64,000 bases of DNA from Patescibacteria group bacterium. GTDB taxonomy: Bacteria > Patescibacteriota > UBA1384 > XYA2-FULL-43-10 > 1-14-0-10-43-13. The first letter of the stretch is position 1; each line of letters starts with the position of its first letter. The stretch is from positions 67,581 through 131,580 of the forward strand of contig JBAZNP010000001.1 of assembly GCA_041649155.1 (NCBI GenBank). The letters run 5' to 3'. The position numbers were made by a program, and so were the translations under genes. The notes beneath the pieces were generated by a model. The model saw only the letters and a list, made by a program, of their open reading frames with translations, did no database searches and had not been told where the DNA came from. Positions 3,824-34,909 of the stretch are shown piece after piece.

Positions 3824-4630
3824 CTAAATTGATTTTAGGATTTTTGATATTCTTTTTATTTTTTCTGCTTTTTTTGTTTTAACATTTATTTCAACAATAA
3901 CTGCATTAAACATACTGTCTCCACTGGCTATTTTATGTGATTGAGGAAGTTGTGTCAAGAATTTTTCTATAATGATTTCCTTCTTAACGCCTAAGACTGA
4001 ATTCTCAGGTCCGCACATTCCCACGTCGGAAATAAATGCAGTTCCGTTTGATAAAACTTTTTCATCTGCAGTCTGTACGTGCGTATGCGTGCCAAACACG
4101 GCTGAAACATATCTATCAAGATAGTAACCCAAGGCCATTTTCTCACTCGTCGCTTCAGCATGAAAGTCAATTATGATTATGGAATTTTGGTGATCTTCAA
4201 CTATATTTTTACCGATTATGAAAGGACTTTCAATGTCATCTCTCATAAAAACCCTGCCCTGGAGATTAATTAAAGTCAAATCAACGTCTTTGACTTTAAA
4301 AGTAGTCACACCTCTTCCAGGAGAAGACTGGGGATAATTAGCCGGCCTCAACACTTTTATTCTTTGGTCATTTAAACATGAAATAAAGTCCGCATTATTC
4401 CAAATATGATTGCCCGAAGTGAAGTAATCGACGCCCGCCTTAATCATTTCGTCATATTTTTCAAAAGTCATTCCCTTACCCGAAGCCAGATTTTCCCCAT
4501 TTGCAATTACAAAATCAATTCCTTCTTCTTTTTTGATCTCAGGAATAAAATGAGCAACAGCTCTTCTTCCGGGCTTGCCTACAATGTCACCTATGAACAA
4601 TATTTTAATAAATTCTGATTTTTTTTGCAT
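3824..4630 (-). CDS. ymdB: YmdB-like metallophosphoesterase (TIGR00282)
   Basis: N-terminal ILFIGDIVGKPGR with GNH and GTHTH metal-binding motifs. It sits immediately downstream of rny, as in Bacillus. Confidence 0.8.
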   Translation of the reverse strand: MQKKSEFIKILFIGDIVGKPGRRAVAHFIPEIKKEEGIDFVIANGENLASGKGMTFEKYDEMIKAGVDYFTSGNHIWNNADFISCLNDQRIKVLRPANYPQSSPGRGVTTFKVKDVDLTLINLQGRVFMRDDIESPFIIGKNIVEDHQNSIIIIDFHAEATSEKMALGYYLDRYVSAVFGTHTHVQTADEKVLSNGTAFISDVGMCGPENSVLGVKKEIIIEKFLTQLPQSHKIASGDSMFNAVIVEINVKTKKAEKIKRISKILKSI

Positions 4631-16286: not shown

Positions 16287-17186
16287 TTATCTTCTAGTAC
16301 TATGTTTGTCAAGAATTCGTAGGAACTCCTGAAGCCATGTTTTAGTCCAAGCAGTATTAGGAGTATCAGTAAGTAATTCAGGTAAAATCTGCGAAATTGT
16401 TTGGAGAAGAAAATTGTACTCAATAGCGATTTCGTCGACTGAATCCTGATTTGGGAGTTGGAACTCTGAATTTCCAGCCGTTAATCTCTCTGTGTTCAAC
16501 AAAGTTGATAAGTCATAATGATTATTGTTCACCTGGCAGTTTTCCCAGTCTAATATGTATAATTTCTGATTTGCTCTTATAGCGTTACCGTGCCAAAAGT
16601 CTCCGTGAGTCAGTACCTGTGGTAAATTGTTTAAATATTCGAGCATAATCGAGAATGCTTCTTCGTTGTTTTTAATTAATGTAGTTAACTCCCTGTATGC
16701 TAAATTTTCTTCAAGACTAGTACAAATCTGATTTAGATAAGCAAGAAATTGTGCTTCATTATCATATTCGCCTGCCATAATTTGACTATATGAATCAGGT
16801 ATCTCAATTTTTTGAATTGCCGGCAAAACATCCAGCATGCCATGGGGATCAACTGTCCCATCTGATTCAAGATATTGGAATATTTCAAATCCCTCTATTT
16901 CTCCAATTAGGTCTGGAATACTATCAGATAAGTCATTTGAGAAATGATGGTAGAACAATAACTCTCTATCCTGACCATTTACTAATAAAGGAGAGCTATT
17001 CCGCGGTTTCTTGCATATATATTGTTGCAAACGTCCTTCCTTATCGTCACCAGCAATTAACAGAATATTTTGTTGGAGACGAGAAATTCTAGCTTGTTGA
17101 ATATTCAATTTTTCAGCTATTACATCGGTTATGTTTGGCTCTTCCTCTTCTTGCATAATTCCGTTATTTTCTATCTCTGCCATCAT
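16287..17186 (-). CDS. Aminoglycoside/choline-kinase-like phosphotransferase (APH family)
   Basis: HGDFWHGN catalytic loop and a DWE metal-binding motif. Confidence 0.7.
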   Translation of the reverse strand: MMAEIENNGIMQEEEEPNITDVIAEKLNIQQARISRLQQNILLIAGDDKEGRLQQYICKKPRNSSPLLVNGQDRELLFYHHFSNDLSDSIPDLIGEIEGFEIFQYLESDGTVDPHGMLDVLPAIQKIEIPDSYSQIMAGEYDNEAQFLAYLNQICTSLEENLAYRELTTLIKNNEEAFSIMLEYLNNLPQVLTHGDFWHGNAIRANQKLYILDWENCQVNNNHYDLSTLLNTERLTAGNSEFQLPNQDSVDEIAIEYNFLLQTISQILPELLTDTPNTAWTKTWLQEFLRILDKHSTRR

Positions 17187-17509
17187 AAATTCCTGTTTAG
17201 TTGTTTAGTATTGCAAAAAAACACTATATAAATATATTAGCATTTTTTAAAAATAGTAGCATTAATTTGCAGTGGTTTGGCACATCAAGCACGTTTCGTT
17301 TATAGTGCTTTCTTAAGATTTTCTTAATGTTGTTTTGCTATGCTTGATAATAGATGTTTTTAAAAAATATTCTCTAATCAATTTTATATATCAAGCTCTA
17401 GACCAAACAAAACCCAAACTTGTCCACAAAATTCAAACTTGAGCAAAAGCAAATTTGAGAGCAGTATTTAAGGGATTTTCAAGACAATAAAAAAACAATA
17501 CCAACTATT

Positions 17510-20399: not shown

Positions 20400-20650
20400 A
20401 ACAAATTCCCTCGCTTTCCCAATGAAAGTATTGCAACGCTGGCCAACTCTTGTTTGGCCAGCAGTTTTTTATATGACAATCATTTTTTGTAACTTTTTCT
20501 TTCTAATATTCAAGAAGAATTGTTCTTAATCAAAATTATATAGCAAAAGACGTTAAGAAAGGATTAAGAAAATTTTGACTACGATAAAATTGACTTTGTT
20601 GTGATTTTTAGGTATTATTTTACTGTTATTTTCAAGTAAGAAAATTTTGT

Positions 20651-26876: not shown

Positions 26877-26953
26877 GGGGTCGTAGTTCAGTTGGTTAGA
26901 ACGCCACACTGTCACTGTGGAGGTCGCCGGTTCGAGTCCGGTCGATCCCGCCA
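26877..26953 (+). tRNA. tRNA-Asp (anticodon GTC)
   Basis: GGGGUCG acceptor, loop CUGUCAC, T-loop TTCGAGT, CCA encoded. Confidence 0.8.
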
Positions 26954-27057
26954 GTAAAAAACCGTTAGTGCATTGCAAATGTACTGGCGGTTTTTTATTG
27001 CTATTTTTGCAAATTATTGTTATACATGTAGCGAGATTAGCAAAGGGGGCATGTGAC

Positions 27058-27384
27058 ATGCTTACTGGAATTTTATACCGGCTATCGGGATTGATTTATG
27101 GCAAATACGTTTGCGTCCGTTGCGGTAAACAGTTTCCAAACAGGTTGATCAAAAAAGTGCTAAACCAATGGATTGCTGCAAAATGGCACGAAGATATGTC
27201 GACAACAGCCGGATCTGTTCATCGAGTCTGCCTCCAATGTTGCGAATTGGCCAAAAGTTGGGATGGCACAGAATCTGGATATGATCCAAAAAATGATCCG
27301 GCAGCCGGACTTGGTTTGGGTCCAATCGCATCCGATCTACTTAGAATGATCGAGGATGCTCAGGAAACTTTGAAAGGAAAGTAG
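27058..27384 (+). CDS. hypothetical zinc-ribbon protein (CxxC…CxxCC)
   Basis: In-frame ATG 9 nt after an AAGGGGG RBS. The track's 5' extension runs through tRNA-Asp and is rejected. CVRCGK…CLQCC. Confidence 0.5.
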   Translation: MLTGILYRLSGLIYGKYVCVRCGKQFPNRLIKKVLNQWIAAKWHEDMSTTAGSVHRVCLQCCELAKSWDGTESGYDPKNDPAAGLGLGPIASDLLRMIEDAQETLKGK

Positions 27385-27586: not shown

Positions 27587-28444
27587 ATGAAAAAGAGCTT
27601 GATTTTGTGTTTGATCACAGTTGTAAGCGTGGGCATATTGGCACCCACTCCAATCAGAGCAAGTGAAGAAGGACGACGCAATGTTGCTTATCTGACAGGC
27701 GTATTGCTTGGCGGAGCGATTTACACCGGTAATCCATATGCAATCGGAGCAACAGGATCCGGAACGCTTTATTCCTTGAAACGATTGGGCGATGAAATCA
27801 ATAATCGCCACCAGCGGGAGAAATATTATCAGCCACAAGCCCGTCAACCTCAGAACTGTCCATCTCCATGCCAACAGCCAGCATATTGTCCTGCACAATA
27901 TCAACAAGTAGCATGCTGTCCGACTTGCGGTCAAAGTCAGACATACTCAAATTGCGGACCAAGAGGACAAAATTGTTCTGTCAACCAGCCTCCGCAGTAT
28001 GTCTATTACCCGACCACAGCTCAATGCAATAACTACGACAGTCGTGACCCTGACGAGTTAATTCCCAATACGGCTTCAGAGTCTTCGCATCAGAATTTCT
28101 CGGTTGGATACAATGGCAACAATCCAACATTTCGCTTCAATCGCTCAGGAGGGCAACGCACAAGCTATGTCCGCAGAGGAAACAAACAAAAACAATCGCA
28201 AAAAGCGCAAAAAGTGATAGTGGTCTATGTAGATGCTAATGGTTATCCGATACAGCAAAATGCCGGTTATCAGCCGCAACCAACATATCAACGTGACCCC
28301 GATCAGTTGGTTCCTGTCAGCGCTTCAGATTCATCTCATCAGAATTTCTCGGTTGGATACAACGGTAACAATCCAACATCTTACCTCAATCGTTCAGGCG
28401 GTCAACGCATAAGTTATGCTCGCAGAGGCAACTTAAGAAATTAA
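27587..28444 (+). CDS. Secreted protein with a Cys/Gln/Pro-rich linker and two ~75-aa tandem repeats
   Basis: Signal peptide. Internal repeats …RDPDELIPNTASESSHQNFSVGYNGNNPT…RSGGQR.SY.RRGN occur twice. Confidence 0.6.
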   Translation: MKKSLILCLITVVSVGILAPTPIRASEEGRRNVAYLTGVLLGGAIYTGNPYAIGATGSGTLYSLKRLGDEINNRHQREKYYQPQARQPQNCPSPCQQPAYCPAQYQQVACCPTCGQSQTYSNCGPRGQNCSVNQPPQYVYYPTTAQCNNYDSRDPDELIPNTASESSHQNFSVGYNGNNPTFRFNRSGGQRTSYVRRGNKQKQSQKAQKVIVVYVDANGYPIQQNAGYQPQPTYQRDPDQLVPVSASDSSHQNFSVGYNGNNPTSYLNRSGGQRISYARRGNLRN

Positions 28445-28523: not shown

Positions 28524-29660
28524 TTACTTTTGTGACGAAGGCATAATCTTCCAGAAATTCATTCCCAGAATTCCCAATGAAAGTAAGAATAAGAGAACAA
28601 TTGTTACCCAACCGATTATTGGAACAAGACTAATCAAAGTAAGGGAAACCACTCCGACCAAGGCAGAAAGCCAGTCAACTTTGAGATCTTTATCCTTTTT
28701 AATTAGTTTAATAATGTAGCTTCCAGCAACCAGAGGAGACAAAAGCGTTGAAAGCAGTAATAACAATCCATAAATTAAGCAAACAATAATTGCCAGTTTT
28801 ATCCCAATTATAGTCACCATCAAGAATATGCTGGCAATCGGAACTATGATAATAGTAAGTAATCCCCAGCCAATTTTAGCCCAATAATTCTTAAACGCAC
28901 TTTCCACCACCGATTTGGCAGGCTTGGGAAACATTAACACTAGCACTAGCAGAGTTATAAATGATATCAAAATACTATAAATCACTTCTGTGGCTCGCAT
29001 TGACTTCCATACATGCTCGCCTGTGCTGATTTCTTTATAATCAACACTTCCGGTTATTGATGCGTTGGAAGATATATTTGCCTCATTTGGCGAAGAATAA
29101 GAAAGTTTGCCATTAATCTTTGCATTATCACCAATAGTTAAATCGCTCACGTTTTTTATGACAACGTCTCCGCTAATTTCGCCATTTATGGAGATTTTCT
29201 CACCGGAGGCATATACTTTGCCTTTAATGTTACCATTAATATTTACAAGGCTTCCGGCGATTATAAGATCGCCATCTATCTCGCTGTTTTTATCCAAATC
29301 AACAGAATTACCGGCAACTGTTAAATCCTGACCAATTTTTCCGCTCACAGAAACGCTTCCACCGGCTACTCTGGCATTTTTACCGATATCCCCTTTTATA
29401 TTCAACGTTCCGCCGGCAGCTAAAAGATCATCTTCGATCTTATTGTTAATAACTACTGTACTACCAGCTGCGACCAAGTCGCTTTTTATCTCTCCGTCAA
29501 CGTTAACCGTGTTGCCCGCAACATAGAGATTTTTTAAAACCTCATTCTTACCGATTACAACTGTGGCATCTGCCTCTTTTGAGCTTCTAAACTCGGCAGC
29601 AAACACCATCGTTGGTGCTAAAACTAGCAACCCAAGCAAAAGAACAAATAGCTTTTTCAT
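28524..29660 (-). CDS. Beta-helical repeat protein (bactofilin/DUF342-like repeats) with an N-terminal signal peptide and a C-terminal multi-TM domain
   Basis: Repeated …G.V.V.G.I.GDL.AAG… units over about 180 aa. The N-terminus MKKLFVLLLGLLVLAPTMVFA is a signal peptide. Four TM helices at the C-terminus. Confidence 0.5.
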   Translation of the reverse strand: MKKLFVLLLGLLVLAPTMVFAAEFRSSKEADATVVIGKNEVLKNLYVAGNTVNVDGEIKSDLVAAGSTVVINNKIEDDLLAAGGTLNIKGDIGKNARVAGGSVSVSGKIGQDLTVAGNSVDLDKNSEIDGDLIIAGSLVNINGNIKGKVYASGEKISINGEISGDVVIKNVSDLTIGDNAKINGKLSYSSPNEANISSNASITGSVDYKEISTGEHVWKSMRATEVIYSILISFITLLVLVLMFPKPAKSVVESAFKNYWAKIGWGLLTIIIVPIASIFLMVTIIGIKLAIIVCLIYGLLLLLSTLLSPLVAGSYIIKLIKKDKDLKVDWLSALVGVVSLTLISLVPIIGWVTIVLLFLLSLGILGMNFWKIMPSSQK

Positions 29661-29918: not shown

Positions 29919-30101
29919 ATAATAAATACCCCTTGTTATTTAGATTAATTAGATCGGAATGAGAATTTATCATAATCTTAGTTAAGAAAAATTAAATAAA
30001 AGTTAAAGATTTTCTTAAGAAATTATTTACTGTTCTGGATAATTTTGACAAGGAGGAAGGTTAATAATACAATGTTATTGATTAATGATTTGAGGTATTA
30101 A

Positions 30102-30770
30102 ATGAAAATTCTACTAATAGACGATGATGAATCTATAAGAAATTTCCTAAAATCAGCCCTAGAATCCGAATGTTTTGAAGTTGATTTGGCTGAAGACGGA
30201 GAAAAAGGATCTTTTTTGAGTCGGACAAATGATTATGACGTTATCATTTGTGATTATTCTCTCCCCAAGAAAAACGGACAACAGATTTGTGAAGAAATAC
30301 GAAAAGACGAAAAAGACACTCCTATTCTAATGCTGTCGGTAGAAGGAGAATCGCAAATGAAGGCTGATTTGTTGAACATTGGAGCGGATGACTATCTCAC
30401 CAAGCCTTTTTCATTGGAAGAATTGCTGGCCAGAGTCAGGGCGCTTCTTAGAAGACCAAACCAGATTAAAAACGATATTCTTAAAATTGATGATCTAATC
30501 ATTGATACAAAAAAGCACTTGGTAAAGCGGGGTGAAAAAGAAATTTATCTAACAATGAAAGAGTTTATGCTTCTGGAATATCTAATGCGTAGTAGAGGCG
30601 CTGTCCAATCCAGAGCTATAATTCTTGAACATGTTTGGGACATGAATGCAGATTTATTTTCGAACACAATTGAAGCGCATATTTCTAATTTAAGACGCAA
30701 AATAGACACTAAAGGTAAAAATAAACTTATCCACACCATTCCAGGTCGTGGATATAAAATCGATATATAA
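30102..30770 (+). CDS. OmpR-family response regulator (REC plus winged-helix)
   Basis: ILLIDDD…D…K, then a C-terminal trans_reg_C region (…IHTIPGRGYKI). Confidence 0.9.
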   Translation: MKILLIDDDESIRNFLKSALESECFEVDLAEDGEKGSFLSRTNDYDVIICDYSLPKKNGQQICEEIRKDEKDTPILMLSVEGESQMKADLLNIGADDYLTKPFSLEELLARVRALLRRPNQIKNDILKIDDLIIDTKKHLVKRGEKEIYLTMKEFMLLEYLMRSRGAVQSRAIILEHVWDMNADLFSNTIEAHISNLRRKIDTKGKNKLIHTIPGRGYKIDI

Positions 30771-30899
30771 TTTAACAATTTCTTAATCTTTTCTTAATAT
30801 TGTTTTAAGGATAATTTAAAAAACGGGCATTTTAAACTTCATTGAATTCTAGGTCGAAGGATTCTTTCTCTATGCTCGAATAATGTTAAGGAGGGAACC

Positions 30900-31013
30900 A
30901 TGAAAGAAGTTATGGCACAAATGCTTACTGACAAAAGCATGCGGTCAAAGGAAGCTGCAAAAGAAGCTGCTGTAAAATACGCAGCAGAACCATTTACTTA
31001 CTGGGCCTACTAA
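30900..31013 (+). CDS. 37-aa peptide ORF (MKEVMAQMLTDKSMRSKEAAKEAAVKYAAEPFTYWAY) between the RR and HK genes. It is a candidate signalling-peptide precursor.
   Basis: Perfect AGGAGG RBS 6 nt upstream, an aromatic Trp-containing C-terminus, and a 12-bp stem-loop immediately downstream. Not in the ORF track. Confidence 0.5.
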   Translation: MKEVMAQMLTDKSMRSKEAAKEAAVKYAAEPFTYWAY

Positions 31014-31020
31014 TATGATA

Positions 31021-31050
31021 AGCAAACAAGGCAACTTTGCCTTGTTTGCT
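31021..31050 (+). promoter_or_regulatory. Perfect 12-bp stem-loop (agcaaacaaggc-aacttt-gccttgtttgct) between the peptide ORF and the kinase gene
   Basis: Read directly. There is no T-tract, so this is a possible attenuator or processing/stability element. Confidence 0.5.
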
Positions 31051-31063
31051 TACTAAAAAAACA

Positions 31064-32440
31064 ATGCTAAAAAATATATTTTATAGACTTATTAAACACA
31101 GACCAGAGAAAAGAGGTGACCAGGTTATATATCTTTTATTATTAATATTCTTAATAATCGCTTTTTCCTGTTTTTCCATAGTATTAGCAAGTAATTTAAT
31201 TGGCCACGGCGGTTCAGTAATACTCTCTCTTACCTTTGTTCTACTAATAATCTCTGCGATTTATGCCTTTCAAGCTGGATATATAAAAATTGTAAATTAT
31301 TTTTTCTTATTTCTAATCCTCTTTGGCTATTACAATATTGTTCATAATTCTGGTGTTGAAAATTTATTTGCCATATTGCTGATGGTCTTCTACATTATCA
31401 TCTCAGCTATAATGTTTAAAAGCAGATCATTCCTCGTCAGCATTCTGGTCCTATTTTTTATTTTCATAACTCAAAGCCGGCTAGAAATTAAGGGTTTAGT
31501 CTCTCCGGATTTAAGCTGGCGCGCTTCGACAACTACCATTTCAGACATAGCTGCAATAAGCGTCATCCTTTCACTAATCATATTTATTTCATGGTTATTT
31601 AACCGTGAAATAAATAGTTATATTCATCAGTTAGAAGAATCTCAAAAGCTGCTCAGAAAAGAAAGAGATCTTTTGGAAATAAGAGTTAAGGAGAGAACAA
31701 AACAATTACAAAAAGAACAATTAGATAGACTGTCTGAGCTGTCGAAATTTGCGGAATTTGGGAGGTTAGCACAAGGACTCTTTCATGATCTTGCTAATCC
31801 GCTGACTGCACTTTCTCTTAATTTAAATCAAATAAAGAAAAAAAAGGATTCTTCTAAGATTAAAGTATATATGCAAGAGACAAATGCAGCAGCAGAGAAT
31901 ATGAAAAAATTGATAGACTCAACTATGATTTATTCTCAAAACAAATTAATCAAAGGATCATTTTCAATTATTGAAGAATTAAAAAATGCGCAATTGATTT
32001 GTAATTATAAATCAAGACAAACAGGAGTAAGTCTACATTTCCAAGATAAAAATGATATTAAATTATTCGGCAATAGAACAAGATTTTCACAATTAATATG
32101 CAACATGGTATTGAATGCTATTGAAGCTTACGAGGAACAAAAATCAAAGATCAACGAAAGTGATGAAAAGGAAATTAGTATTAGTTTTAGTAAGACAGAC
32201 AATGATGTGACAATAATTATAAAAGATAACGCTCTCGGTATGCCGGAAAAAATTAAAGAGAATATTTTCAGACCATTTTATAGCACAAAAAAACATATGG
32301 GAAACTCTGGCATTGGTCTTTCTATGTGCAAGGACATTGTTGAGAGTGATTTTATGGGAAAAATAGAACTAAACAGCCAGCATCATAAGGGTACCGAATT
32401 TATTATTACCATACCATTGGTGGTACAGGAAAAAAATTAA
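31064..32440 (+). CDS. Sensor histidine kinase (multi-TM sensor, HisKA, HATPase_c)
   Basis: 6 TM helices, FHDLANPLT H-box, and N/G boxes (NAIEAY…GIGLSMC). The start is taken at ATG 31064; the track's TTG start at 31037 lies inside the hairpin. Confidence 0.85.
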   Translation: MLKNIFYRLIKHRPEKRGDQVIYLLLLIFLIIAFSCFSIVLASNLIGHGGSVILSLTFVLLIISAIYAFQAGYIKIVNYFFLFLILFGYYNIVHNSGVENLFAILLMVFYIIISAIMFKSRSFLVSILVLFFIFITQSRLEIKGLVSPDLSWRASTTTISDIAAISVILSLIIFISWLFNREINSYIHQLEESQKLLRKERDLLEIRVKERTKQLQKEQLDRLSELSKFAEFGRLAQGLFHDLANPLTALSLNLNQIKKKKDSSKIKVYMQETNAAAENMKKLIDSTMIYSQNKLIKGSFSIIEELKNAQLICNYKSRQTGVSLHFQDKNDIKLFGNRTRFSQLICNMVLNAIEAYEEQKSKINESDEKEISISFSKTDNDVTIIIKDNALGMPEKIKENIFRPFYSTKKHMGNSGIGLSMCKDIVESDFMGKIELNSQHHKGTEFIITIPLVVQEKN

Positions 32441-32441
32441 A

Positions 32442-34376
32442 ATGTCTGATAGAGGAAATCTTGATCACGCCATTTTAAAGAGCATCAAATTCATAACAGA
32501 ACAGCAAAATCCAGACGGCTCATTTAATAGCTATTCACACAAGGAGTCTAACCCTGCAAAAACAGAGTCATTTGTGACTATTTTTTACACATCGTTGATT
32601 TTATATAGCATATCTCAAATTAAAAATTCAAAGCTTTCAAAAATAAAAGACACGGCTTGTAATTTTTTATTAAGCGAAAAAAATAAGGACGGGACTTATA
32701 ATTATTGGGCAAAGAGTTTTTCAAAATACAAAACCGAATCATGCCCAAATGATCTAGATGATACTTCGTGTGCCTTATCAGCATTGTTTGCATGCGATCA
32801 AAATTTAATAAAAGAGGACGCATTAGCCCAAATTACTCAAGTTCTAATAAACTCAGAATATGAAGAAGGTGGGCCTTATTTTACTTGGATTGTTCCTAAA
32901 AATGCCGACTCAAAATGGAAAGACATCGATCTTGCAGTCAATACAAACATTGGGCTCTTTCTTTCGATGCTTGGAATAACATTACCGAATATTGAAAAAT
33001 TAATCGAAAATGCAATAGAAAAAGAAGAATTTTCTTCAACATACTATCCCAATTATTCAACTTTGTACTTCATTTCAAGATTTTACAAGGGAAAATTAAA
33101 AGAAAAATTAATACAATTTATACAAAAGGAAAACTCCAAGCCTTTTAAAAATTCTCTGGAATGCGTTTTACTTGGAATTTCATTATTAAATTTAGAAGAA
33201 GAACAAGCCAAAGTCCAAAATAATATTGACTATCTATTAAAAAACCAGCAAAAAAATGGTTCTTTTGGTTCTCACGTATTTATCATCGAACGATCATACA
33301 AAAAAGATAAACGGCTTTCAGGATCAGAAGCCTTTACTGCAATATTGGCGATAGAACTAATGACTAAATATCAGGAACCTAAAATAGATAAAAAAAGTGT
33401 GATAAAATATGATAAATTTTCCAACTTAAAAAATTTAGTCGCCAATCATGCTAGCGAATTAATCAAAAGCAGATTTAAAGATGATTTAGCAGATCAATTT
33501 AATATTTTTCTAAAGAAAATTATTAGTTCTGATCATGATGGACAAATTATTATTCACCCATATCTATTCATAAACTCGCTTAAGAAAAGAACTTTTTTAT
33601 TTAAAGAAAATGAAAAAGTTTTACTCGACACAGCAGTTGCCGGAATGTTCGGCTGGCTCTCCTATACAATATTTGACAATAATATCGATGAAAAAAAAGA
33701 TTTAGATAAACTCCCCTTAGCGATAATTTGCAACAGAGAACTGGAAGAATTATTTTGTAAAAACAATCCCGATTTTAAACCAATTTTCCGAATGCTAATA
33801 GACAGAGTAGATTATGCTAATTTTTATGAATTTAAATATGCTCGCCTTGATAATAAGTCGAATTATTCTTTAGAGAAAATTTACCCGAATGTTGAATTTA
33901 TTGCAGAAAAATCCATTGCTCATTGCCTTGGACCATTGTCGATCATGACCAAACTCGGTTTTTCTCCTGAAAGTCAGGAGTTTAAGGATTTGTTCTCTTT
34001 CTACCAAAATTATTTAATTGCAAGACAACTAAACGACGATGCTCATGATTGGGAAGAAGACTTTACGCGAGGACAAATTAATTATGCAGGAGAAATTCTG
34101 CTAAGAGATTTTAAGAAAATAAATAACAGAAAAGCCGATATTTCAAAAGATCTTCTTGAACTGAGAAAATTATTTTGGGACAAGACTATTCTGGAAGTCT
34201 GCAACATAATTAAAAATAAAATTACAGAAGCAAAAGCAAACCTACTTTCGCTTTCTGGGATATTAGATCAAAATTATCTCAAAAACAAGCTAGACGAACT
34301 AGAAAGATCTGCGGAGAAAGCCATCAAAGAAAGACTAAAAACAAAGCAGTTTCTAAATGCTTTAGATTTAGACTAG
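32442..34376 (+). CDS. Two-domain protein. The N-terminal half has prenyltransferase/squalene-cyclase-type repeats (QQNPDGSF, KDGTYNYW). The C-terminal half is isoprenoid-synthase-like with Asp-rich motifs (IFDNNIDE … NDDAHDWEE).
   Basis: Q/K-x-x-DG-S/T-F/Y repeats are typical of alpha/alpha-barrel prenyltransferase/terpene cyclase folds. The C-terminal motifs are spaced about 120 aa apart, like the DDxxD and NSE/DTE motifs of class I isoprenoid synthases. The ATG is 1 nt after the kinase stop. Confidence 0.4.
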   Translation: MSDRGNLDHAILKSIKFITEQQNPDGSFNSYSHKESNPAKTESFVTIFYTSLILYSISQIKNSKLSKIKDTACNFLLSEKNKDGTYNYWAKSFSKYKTESCPNDLDDTSCALSALFACDQNLIKEDALAQITQVLINSEYEEGGPYFTWIVPKNADSKWKDIDLAVNTNIGLFLSMLGITLPNIEKLIENAIEKEEFSSTYYPNYSTLYFISRFYKGKLKEKLIQFIQKENSKPFKNSLECVLLGISLLNLEEEQAKVQNNIDYLLKNQQKNGSFGSHVFIIERSYKKDKRLSGSEAFTAILAIELMTKYQEPKIDKKSVIKYDKFSNLKNLVANHASELIKSRFKDDLADQFNIFLKKIISSDHDGQIIIHPYLFINSLKKRTFLFKENEKVLLDTAVAGMFGWLSYTIFDNNIDEKKDLDKLPLAIICNRELEELFCKNNPDFKPIFRMLIDRVDYANFYEFKYARLDNKSNYSLEKIYPNVEFIAEKSIAHCLGPLSIMTKLGFSPESQEFKDLFSFYQNYLIARQLNDDAHDWEEDFTRGQINYAGEILLRDFKKINNRKADISKDLLELRKLFWDKTILEVCNIIKNKITEAKANLLSLSGILDQNYLKNKLDELERSAEKAIKERLKTKQFLNALDLD

Positions 34377-34516: not shown

Positions 34517-34909
34517 CTATTGAAGCGCATACTGCACGTCGTTTTTAAATATCATTGAGGATTTAGTTATCCCCAAAATGTTGAGCACCCTATATGGCCT
34601 GCTTGAGTTACTACATATGATCACTCCGCGGCAATCATTGTCCATAACCTTACGGATGCATGCCAATATAGTTTTTACCCCTTCACTGTCGATAAAGGAC
34701 AGATCGTTTAAATTAAAAAACCAATCCGATTCCCCATCATTGTTTTCTTCAAAAGCCTGACTCACTACATCACAAACACTGAAATCTACATATCCACATC
34801 CAAAAGTCATCATCTTAATGCCCTCGGAAATATCAGTTATTTTGATCTCAGCCGGTTTTGACTCTGTCTCCGAGTCATTGCTCATCCCGAGTTCCTCCAT
34901 ACTAATCAC
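34517..34909 (-). CDS. STAS-domain protein (anti-sigma-factor antagonist-like)
   Basis: …LNDLSFIDSEGV…VLNILGIT… matches the SpoIIAA-like STAS pattern. Confidence 0.6.
   Translation of the reverse strand: MISMEELGMSNDSETESKPAEIKITDISEGIKMMTFGCGYVDFSVCDVVSQAFEENNDGESDWFFNLNDLSFIDSEGVKTILACIRKVMDNDCRGVIICSNSSRPYRVLNILGITKSSMIFKNDVQYALQ

Follow-up and report, generated by a model that had tools for sequence, protein, structure and literature searches.

A conserved gene module of Patescibacteria that may produce and sense a tryptophan peptide carrying a cyclised terpene

A stretch of 64,000 nucleotides (nt) from the metagenome-assembled genome of a Patescibacteria group bacterium (GenBank assembly GCA_041649155.1, contig JBAZNP010000001.1 of roughly 0.8 Mb, positions 67,581 to 131,580 of the forward strand; here called the window, with positions counted from its first letter) carries four adjacent genes on the same strand. 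They encode an OmpR-type response regulator, a 37-amino-acid (aa) peptide with a tryptophan near its C-terminus, a polytopic histidine kinase and a 644-aa enzyme in which a class II terpene cyclase domain is joined to a prenyltransferase domain. We propose, with a probability of roughly 0.55, that this module makes and senses a terpene-decorated peptide signal and follows the logic of the ComQXPA quorum-sensing system with non-homologous parts. The initial annotation of the window had suggested an analogous prenylated-peptide signalling circuit. Each computational check put forward with it gave a favourable result, and its main thrust was supported by the cyclase toroid, by the conservation of the peptide and its Trp, by isoprenyl diphosphate synthase (IPPS) genes in the operons of related loci, by a locus that retains peptide and enzyme without the two-component system, and by variants with an eroded cyclase; from these we infer prenylation and sensing.

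The peptide gene was read in the window where it had been placed, as a 37-codon open reading frame (ORF) behind an AGGAGG ribosome-binding site, between the genes of the OmpR-type regulator and the kinase (Table 1). Its product consists of a conserved leader (MKEVMAQMLTDKSMRS), a variable middle and Trp35 followed by AY, and the C-terminal stretch …EPFTYWAY was read as previously reported. The ORF had also been described as unannotated. This holds for the gene calls that ENA and Logan give for this genome, in which it is missing, but not for the JGI/ENA protein sets, in which the exact peptide is present without a name. Searches of the peptide against Pfam and NCBIfam, ComX (PF05952) included, gave no consistent family, and a single match to DUF7895 (E 0.03) was discarded as it was not shared by nine other family members.

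Conservation of the peptide was assessed in 86 loci encoding relatives of the enzyme (numbered with the prefix L), of which 6 came from metagenome assemblies and 80 were the best of 334 GTDB species genomes with a relative. The enzymes of these loci are mostly just 30–40% identical to that of the window. An ORF of 33–45 aa was found just 5' of the kinase gene in 76 of the 78 loci with enough upstream DNA, and the encoded peptides share the pattern M-K-x-[LIV]-x-K-K-[IVL]-L-T-[DNS]-K-x-x-R-[NSK], followed by about 15–20 variable residues, [P]-W and 1–6 further residues. Between the window and L001, the differences within the peptide ORF include many third-codon positions.

A hidden Markov model (HMM) of the first 17 residues only (leader consensus MKxLxKKxLTDKxxRN), which holds no information on the Trp, was searched against 27,908 stop-to-stop pieces from all six frames of the 86 loci. 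Matches at E<0.1 were obtained in 74 loci, all on the strand of the enzyme gene, and every one of them has a Trp in its last nine residues, whereas the chance matches at E>1 have none. Sixty-nine of the 74 were scored as lying just 5' of the adjacent kinase gene. The matches at L017, L031, L041 and L075 also lie directly 5' of the enzyme-adjacent kinase ORF, though the script did not score them as such, and at L006 the peptide gene stands directly 5' of the enzyme gene with no kinase or two-component system nearby, its product ending …AGRPWCC. Beyond these 74 loci, the peptide is carried by L062 and L055. At L055 (about 4400–4480) no ATG, GTG or TTG precedes the leader motif of the peptide (…TKKLLKKVFINKVIRDTMAISAFVVIIMETTLVWS), which may reflect a non-canonical start, a sequencing error or decay; a classification of this locus as peptide-less was rejected, the peptide being present without a canonical start codon. 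Ten loci are left over, eight of which simply lack upstream DNA, the other two being L002 and L003.

Among the 74 unique peptides, Trp occurs in 100%, at a distance of 1–6 residues from the C-terminus and never as the last residue. It is preceded by Pro in 71% and is the single Trp in 71 of the 74. Three peptides end in PWCC or PWECC (L006 5817–5927, L010 4384–4494 and L012 4368–4484), and the paired Cys that follow the Trp could be where a second modification or a lipidation takes place. Conservation of the ORF and of its C-terminal Trp in homologous loci, which had been put forward as a check on the proposed circuit, was found in essentially all of them; judged by this conservation, the 37-codon ORF is a real, conserved gene.

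The gene order is likewise maintained. In nearly all of the 86 loci a homologous kinase gene lies directly 5' of the enzyme gene on the same strand, and in most of them a homologous regulator gene is found on the same strand within 1.6 kb 5' of the kinase gene (phmmer with the window proteins as queries). When the neighbouring ORFs of 83 loci were clustered, the sole other recurrent gene was a canonical polyprenyl diphosphate synthase. In the window, a single base separates the stop codon of the kinase gene (TAA, 32438–32440) from the ATG of the 644-aa ORF (32442–34376), in agreement with the distance of 1 nt given previously. The kinase has about six transmembrane (TM) helices in residues 24–179, joined by loops of 8–20 aa, and an H-box FHDLANP; a Pfam scan gave no match to PF07730 (HisKA_3). 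A six-TM kinase with only short loops is as expected of a sensor for a ligand that partitions into the membrane. The start codon of the ORF list, TTG 31037, lies inside a 15-bp hairpin, and the kinase more likely starts at ATG 31064, a choice with which the Logan call (458 aa) agrees.

Relatives of the enzyme are numerous. At E≤1e-30, a search with an HMM of 40 members against 1.84 billion representative proteins yielded 1,460 clusters; of the best 150, nearly all are 600–700 aa long and matched over almost their full length. The relatives occur in 334 species genomes, nearly all from Patescibacteria. Many module loci come from metagenome-assembled genomes (MAGs) with other labels, namely 'uncultured Gammaproteobacteria', Vitreimonas, Methylomirabilota and Sulfotelmatobacter (L010, L012, L016, L018, L022, L023, L028, L032, L035, L038, L044, L047, L048, L056, L057, L068 and L081). 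In gene content and contig size they resemble the Patescibacteria loci, so that mislabelling or faulty binning is probable; a real transfer outside the candidate phyla radiation (CPR) would be the alternative.

The window enzyme was modelled with confidence by AlphaFold2, as a whole with a predicted local distance difference test score (pLDDT) of 90.7 and as its C-terminal domain alone with one of 93.0. Its N-terminal half carries Q/K-x-x-(D/N)G-S/T-F/Y repeats (QQNPDGSF, EKNKDGTY, QQKNGSF), which had been likened to those of alpha/alpha-barrel prenyltransferases and terpene cyclases. The repeats were found and belong to a cyclase toroid, but the domain is not of the prenyltransferase beta-subunit type. 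A profile search identified the cyclase domain of drimenol synthase as a homologue (9mhs, E 1.7e-11), and the near-invariant P-x-D-L-D-D-T of the family aligns with PDDLDTTS of that enzyme. Conservation reaches 90% or more at each of D104, D106, D107 and T108. The N-terminal domain is an alpha/alpha-toroid monodomain class II terpene cyclase with a DxDDT acid. In a second deposited sequence (9m7d), the position matching D106 is Asn, which would fit a deliberate mutant of the catalytic acid.

The cyclase domain is eroded in two related lineages. P0195 (L089 4001–5629; 542 aa) has an eroded cyclase, and in P0208 (L090 4001–5266; 421 aa) only a remnant of about 60 aa is left; DxDD is lost in both. 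These two loci keep the whole prenyltransferase domain, a 35-aa PW peptide and the order regulator–peptide–kinase–enzyme, with peptides ending …GQPWG and …GQPWI. Since the cyclase-eroded variants keep everything else, the constant core of the module consists of peptide, prenyltransferase domain and two-component system. The product of these variants is probably a linear-prenyl, ComX-like one.

The C-terminal domain adopts the fold of trans-IPPS enzymes. A structure search of this half had been proposed earlier, and among the 50 best PDB matches in Foldseek all were trans-IPPS plus Ord1; the structural matches of the enzyme also include fungal fusions of a prenyltransferase with a class II cyclase, such as PvCPS. 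Profile–profile alignment (hhalign) with the canonical operon IPPS gave E 9e-4 and paired four motifs: YTIYDDFxDE with LLIHDDxxD (the first aspartate-rich motif, FARM), EKS with KT, ARQLNDDAHDW with FQxxDDxxD (the second aspartate-rich motif, SARM), and DLxxG with DIxEGKxT. Two Asp-rich boxes about 120 aa apart had been noted before, and their distance was confirmed at about 117–120 aa. The accompanying reading, that they are spaced as the DDxxD and NSE/DTE motifs of class I isoprenoid synthases, stood for the first box, which is FARM-like, but not for the second. From its alignment, the second box is a SARM and not an NSE/DTE motif. D412, D416, Q529, D532, D536 and D540 are invariant in the family alignment (D412 and D416 in 40 sequences). 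The C-terminal domain shows neither the second motif of a class I terpene cyclase, (N/D)Dxx(S/T)xxxE, nor terpene cyclases as its nearest structural relatives.

Compared with canonical IPPS, RRG after the FARM is replaced by xxLP, and EGKxT by xGxIn with loss of the GK Lys; no GGKRxR-type motif is visible upstream of the FARM in the family consensus. Some of the canonical basic motifs (GGKRxR, RRG, GK(x)T) bind isopentenyl diphosphate. In its motifs, the C-terminal domain looks like an ionising prenyl-donor site without the basic motifs of chain-elongating synthases, and a function as such a synthase was judged unlikely, given the loss of RRG and of the GK Lys and the presence of separate IPPS genes. 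PF00348 (polyprenyl_synt) did not match the window enzyme and matched 3 of 40 family members weakly (0.0096), no ComQ-like NCBIfam match was obtained for the enzyme, and a word-index search with the C-domain profile found nothing beyond fragments and shorter variants of this family, and no relative with a name or from outside the CPR.

A canonical polyprenyl diphosphate synthase of about 345 aa is encoded in the module operon at 17 of 83 loci. At 11 of these its gene is the next one 3' of the enzyme gene, reads in the same direction and in many cases overlaps the stop codon of the enzyme gene (L009, L023, L035, L039, L043, L051, L056, L074, L078, L079 and L082); elsewhere it stands between the regulator and peptide genes (L015, L034, L069, L081) or is convergent (L040, L070). 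Two types of this synthase were seen, one with LLIHDDxxD and a small residue at −5 in the downstream position, the other with SEDWLLIHDD and Trp at −5 in the upstream position, a difference in residues that suggests different chain lengths.

According to a census of 2014, comQXPA loci occur in Firmicutes only and encode ComQ (PF00348, a single domain of about 300 aa), ComX (Trp in the last 5–10 residues), ComP (HisKA_3, PF07730, 8–10 TM) and ComA (GerE, PF00196) (PMC4008528). By these definitions the module has a ComX-type peptide (Trp35 of 37), whereas its enzyme, kinase and regulator do not qualify as ComQ, ComP and ComA. It shares with ComQXPA four adjacent genes on one strand, a short precursor whose Trp is near the C-terminus and whose core varies, a trans-IPPS-fold enzyme, a polytopic kinase without a large extracellular domain, a cognate regulator and the lack of a dedicated exporter or protease. 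In contrast to the order Q-X-P-A, the order here is regulator–peptide–kinase–enzyme. The regulator is OmpR-type with Trans_reg_C (84 bits; GerE reached 16.5 bits, under its cut-off of 23.5 bits), whereas ComA is LuxR/GerE-type, and the kinase is HisKA-type with about 6 TM, unlike ComP. The peptide is 33–45 aa long, with a conserved leader and no PF05952 match, whereas ComX measures 52–73 aa; the enzyme is twice as large as ComQ, with an added class II cyclase domain and a true SARM instead of a pseudo-SARM; and the hosts are Patescibacteria, not Firmicutes. As far as sequences tell, the resemblance to ComQXPA is one of logic, not of membership.

All characterised trans-isoprenyl diphosphate synthase (trans-IDS)-like prenyltransferases (ComQ, PalQ and the P domain of ChrPC) target Trp, and a Gln just before the SARM contacts the indole NH together with the first SARM Asp, a hallmark of Trp-selective enzymes of this kind (PMC13290415). 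The Q529/D532 pair, the Lys-Ser pair, the FARM and the neighbouring Trp peptide fit this class well. The ComQ homologue StheQ uses its FARM, K174 and Q212 to prenylate the Trp second from the C-terminus, and its pseudo-SARM (N215, D216, D219) binds no metal. PalQ prenylates a C-terminal Trp only if it is the last residue and also geranylates an N-terminal Trp. With StheQ/StheX, PalQ and the free-Trp farnesyltransferase Ord1, the present family shares the all-alpha trans-IPPS fold and a FARM, a Lys and a Gln one helical turn before the second motif; as with StheQ and PalQ, the acceptor Trp would lie at or near the peptide C-terminus. Unlike in PalQ, the Trp is never the last residue here, and, unlike StheQ, PalQ and Ord1, the enzyme has a cyclase domain.

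Fusions of the two activities have been described. ChrPC and NctPC combine a prenyltransferase with an MstE-like cyclase, prenylate Trp with chains of up to C20 and then cyclise them; in ChrPC, the trans-IDS-like P domain places C10–C20 donors on an internal Trp and the C domain cyclises the prenyl group (Hubrich et al., Chem 2024, as reviewed in PMC13290415). Compared by description only, the window enzyme has in common with them a trans-IDS-like domain with a FARM and a Gln before the SARM, a monodomain class II cyclase and a neighbouring Trp peptide. It differs in that the cyclase is N-terminal to the prenyltransferase domain and in that the module is tied to a two-component system and spread across Patescibacteria. 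The precursors of Hubrich et al. are reportedly of the proteusin, Nif11 and lasso types; here the precursor is short, at about 35 aa. The locus had been called probably undescribed. This did not stand for the enzyme type, known since 2024 from ChrPC and NctPC according to PMC13290415, but did for the two-component-coupled module, of which no description, nor of its spread in Patescibacteria, was found in the literature retrieved.

MstE (6sbb) and AstC-type drimenol/drimenyl diphosphate synthases (9mhs, 8zg0) resemble the N-terminal domain in having a single alpha/alpha toroid with a DxDD/DxDTT acid at the aligned position. MstE is said to cyclise a prenyl chain that is already on an aromatic ring. 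The partner of these cyclases is a HAD phosphatase domain or none, unlike the trans-IPPS-fold domain and presumed substrate peptide found here. Lantibiotic operons such as those of nisin (NisRK) and subtilin (SpaRK) encode an OmpR-type regulator and kinase, a precursor and a maturase, with a hairpin after the precursor gene that sets the transcript ratio, and their product is the inducer. The module is similar to them in encoding an OmpR-type regulator and a kinase with a precursor and a presumed maturase, and in the hairpin after the precursor gene; unlike them, it has no transporter, protease or immunity genes and no lanthionine chemistry.

The coordinates of the features are collected in Table 1. 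For the regulator, the top NCBIfam matches are CopR/RppA/PhoB-like, every one of them under its cut-off. Sigma-70-like sites are no more frequent in the region than in shuffled sequences, so that the evidence for the promoter ahead of the regulator gene is weak. The spacer between the regulator and peptide genes measures 129 nt in the window and contains a tandem repeat, TTCTTAA-N4-TTCTTAA, that is a candidate binding site of the OmpR-type regulator on sequence grounds. Three exact copies of this box occur in the window, and at up to two mismatches there are 14, against 3.6±1.7 in shuffles. The same box lies 5' of the peptide gene at L001, and comparable tandem boxes were found in 19 of 69 regulator–peptide spacers, against 7.3 in shuffles. 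By a base-composition estimate, about 0.005 exact copies would be expected by chance. The other two are at 17310–17327 (+), in the intergenic region between genes 16287–17186(−) and 17510(+)/17886(+), and at 20553–20570 (−), just 5' of a TTGACT −35-like hexamer, followed on the minus strand by TATAAT, ahead of tRNA-Pro/tRNA-Gly; possibly, going by the repeat, they are further targets of the regulator.

The hairpin after the peptide stop codon has a folding energy of −22.7 kcal/mol (RNAfold, over the 70 nt past the stop; z = −6.3). Of the related loci, about 48% have a hairpin with z<−2 directly after the peptide stop, and a GGAGG-like motif is seen at the same position before the start codon in many of them. 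No known RNA family was found in Rfam for the hairpin or the spacers. The hairpin may act as an attenuator or as a stabiliser of the mRNA.

Table 1. Positions of the module's features in the 64,000-nt window.
Feature	Position	Strand	Evidence or remark
Sigma-70-like promoter TTGACA-17-TACAAT, 5' of regulator gene	30045..30073	+	Consensus scan, 11/12 matches
OmpR/PhoB-family response regulator, 222 aa	30102..30770	+	Pfam Response_reg 2e-29, Trans_reg_C 7e-24
Tandem direct repeat TTCTTAA-N4-TTCTTAA, 11-bp period	30780..30797	+	Candidate OmpR-type regulator site, ~100 nt 5' of peptide ATG
Shine-Dalgarno sequence AGGAGG	30889..30894	+	Read directly, 5 nt 5' of peptide ATG
Precursor peptide gene, 37 aa, MKEVMAQMLTDKSMRSKEAAKEAAVKYAAEPFTYWAY	30900..31013	+	Homologous ORFs in 76/78 informative loci
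Perfect 15-bp stem-loop, loop ACTT	31019..31052	+	Begins 5 nt past peptide stop; an A-run rather than a T-run comes next
Polytopic sensor histidine kinase, 458 aa	31064..32440	+	HATPase_c 3e-21, HisKA 3e-05 (PF00512, weak); stop TAA 32438-32440
Enzyme N-terminal domain, residues 1-312, monodomain class II terpene cyclase	32442..33377	+	
DLDDT (D104-T108), class II catalytic-acid motif, DxDD/DxDTT type	32751..32765	+	At least 90% conserved in family
Enzyme C-terminal domain, residues 326-644, trans-isoprenyl-diphosphate-synthase-fold prenyltransferase	33417..34376	+	
FARM-like DNNID, residues 412-416 (family consensus YDDFxDE)	33675..33689	+	Aligns to LLIHDDxxD of canonical IPPS
QLNDDAHDWEED, residues 529-540, Gln and SARM (Q-x-x-DDxxD), extended by D540	34026..34061	+	Aligns to FQxxDDxxD of IPPS

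The following sequence of events is proposed. The 37-aa precursor would be bound by the enzyme through its conserved N-terminal leader, which precedes the variable core and Trp35. The C-terminal domain would ionise an allylic polyprenyl diphosphate, probably C15–C20, at its FARM and SARM and alkylate the indole of Trp35, and D106, the DxDDT acid of the N-terminal domain, would then protonate the attached prenyl chain and cyclise it to a (poly)cyclic terpenoid on the peptide. The lipopeptide would leave the cell, possibly after removal of the leader, and partition into the membrane, where the six-TM histidine kinase would sense it. Phosphorylation of the OmpR-type regulator by the kinase would follow, and the regulator would probably activate the peptide–kinase–enzyme transcript via the TTCTTAA-N4-TTCTTAA box, while the hairpin 3' of the peptide gene may keep peptide mRNA above that of kinase and enzyme.

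Several observations weigh against this proposal. No peptide gene was detected at L002 and L003, from two samples of one organism, where the enzyme is accompanied by a related kinase. Both Asp-rich motifs of the enzyme are intact, as in chain-elongating synthases, and the family keeps DDxxD and a further invariant Asp where StheQ has a pseudo-SARM. No polyprenyl diphosphate synthase gene was found within the window, and isoprenoid metabolism is limited in many Patescibacteria. Many loci have a regulator–peptide spacer of less than 50 nt and no repeat box. Conserved genes for an exporter, a leader protease or immunity are lacking near the module; some loci have ABC transporters in their vicinity, but in positions that are not consistent, and a conserved exporter or protease was rejected. 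Finally, two-component systems beside genes for peptides that are synthesised ribosomally and modified post-translationally (RiPPs) need not sense the product.

The same prenylation and cyclisation on Trp could instead yield an antimicrobial or a host-directed, membrane-active lipopeptide, with the two-component system regulating its production while sensing another cue or using the product as an autoinducer. Characterised cyclised-isoprenoid RiPPs are handled in the literature as natural-product lipopeptides, an OmpR-type regulator and kinase control the production of nisin and subtilin (NisRK, SpaRK), and a hairpin 3' of the precursor gene is typical of RiPP operons. Patescibacteria moreover attach to host cells, which makes a host-directed lipopeptide plausible. 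Nevertheless, the absence of conserved immunity, transporter and protease genes would be unusual for a toxic RiPP, and a four-gene core with a short-loop six-TM kinase parallels comQXPA; with the kinase gene nearly inseparable from the enzyme gene over very divergent lineages as well, we regard an effector role as unlikely.

Two further explanations assume that the peptide is not a substrate. In one, the 644-aa protein is a bifunctional synthase of a free cyclic terpenoid, for instance a membrane lipid, and the small protein is a kinase-associated regulator; a prenyl diphosphate provided or ionised by the prenyltransferase domain would be cyclised by the class II domain. The absence of the peptide at L002/L003 would agree with this, as would the intact FARM and SARM, the chain-elongating synthases as nearest structural neighbours, the PvCPS-like fungal fusions among the structural matches and the best match of the N-terminal domain, drimenol synthase, which acts on free farnesyl diphosphate. 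Against it stand the loss of RRG and of the GK Lys, the lack of a visible GGKRxR-type N-terminal motif and the separate canonical IPPS in 17 loci. Variants whose cyclase is eroded but which otherwise keep peptide, prenyltransferase domain and two-component system would be senseless in a cyclic-terpenoid pathway, peptide and enzyme stay together at L006 although the two-component system is absent, and an invariant single Trp close to the C-terminus is precisely the acceptor context that is known. The invariant Gln and Asp pair also fits the reported hallmark of Trp recognition (PMC13290415), and synthesis of a free terpenoid is in our view improbable. Very improbable is an unmodified signalling or regulatory peptide with the enzyme as a mere output gene of the two-component system, which would not account for a peptide linked almost obligatorily to a Trp-type prenyltransferase domain, for the arrangement at L006 or for the polyprenyl diphosphate synthases encoded in the operon. 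Short unmodified peptides with C-terminal aromatic residues do serve as pheromones in Firmicutes.

Some further features of the surroundings were recorded. Eleven tRNA genes lie in the first 27 kb of the window (3324–26953), and a match to Rfam HPnc0260 at 26916–27062, antisense to tRNA-Asp, is probably due to chance (42 bits, gathering score 59). At 27587–28444 (+), a secreted-looking protein of 285 aa is encoded, with about 45 aa duplicated internally (…DPD[EQ]L[IV]P…ASESSHQNFSVGYNGNNPT…NRSGGQR.SY.RRGN) and Gln/Pro-rich stretches; Pfam and PADLOC gave no match for it. The 378-aa protein encoded at 28524–29660 (−) starts with a signal-like segment, contains G-x-[IV] repeat units like those of a beta-helix and is polytopic in its C-terminal region; it corresponds to DUF8173 in precomputed Pfam data, and the same gene adjoins the module at L001. 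A small STAS-domain protein, anti-sigma-antagonist-like, is encoded near the module in the window (34517–34909, −), at L001 (9025–9417) and at L004 (3021–3365). The enzymes of these two STAS-bearing relatives are 70% and 34% identical to that of the window, and the STAS gene was not recovered among the recurrent neighbours of the 83 loci. PADLOC defence models gave no match among the scanned module proteins or three flanking proteins.

A large part of bacterial diversity belongs to Patescibacteria, whose genomes are smaller than 1 Mb and which live attached to other cells and for the most part have not been cultured. To our knowledge, next to nothing has been established on the way in which they perceive one another or their hosts, and a homology-based census of quorum-sensing genes in the CPR mentions neither ComX nor ComQ. 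The retention of a four-gene module in hundreds of reduced genomes points to strong selection. It is possible, though we would not put it at even odds, that the module is a widespread form of cell–cell signalling or quorum sensing of the CPR's own, with a pheromone that is a peptide bearing a cyclised terpenoid on its near-C-terminal Trp and a machinery of cyclase–prenyltransferase fusion, six-TM kinase and OmpR-type regulator. If so, the module would be the first circuit with a peptide pheromone that is native to CPR bacteria, and cyclic-terpene RiPPs would for the first time have a role in signalling, which would give their chemistry a physiological function. Trp prenylation of the ComX type is known as signalling from Firmicutes only, with ComQ-like enzymes also in Sphaerobacter and Paenibacillus; it would reach a distant radiation, apparently from different kinase and regulator families. 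The approximately 1,460 enzyme clusters and their cognate variable peptides would then form a natural library of Trp prenyltransferase/cyclase pairs for biocatalysis, and the circuit may offer handles for the cultivation or manipulation of CPR bacteria.

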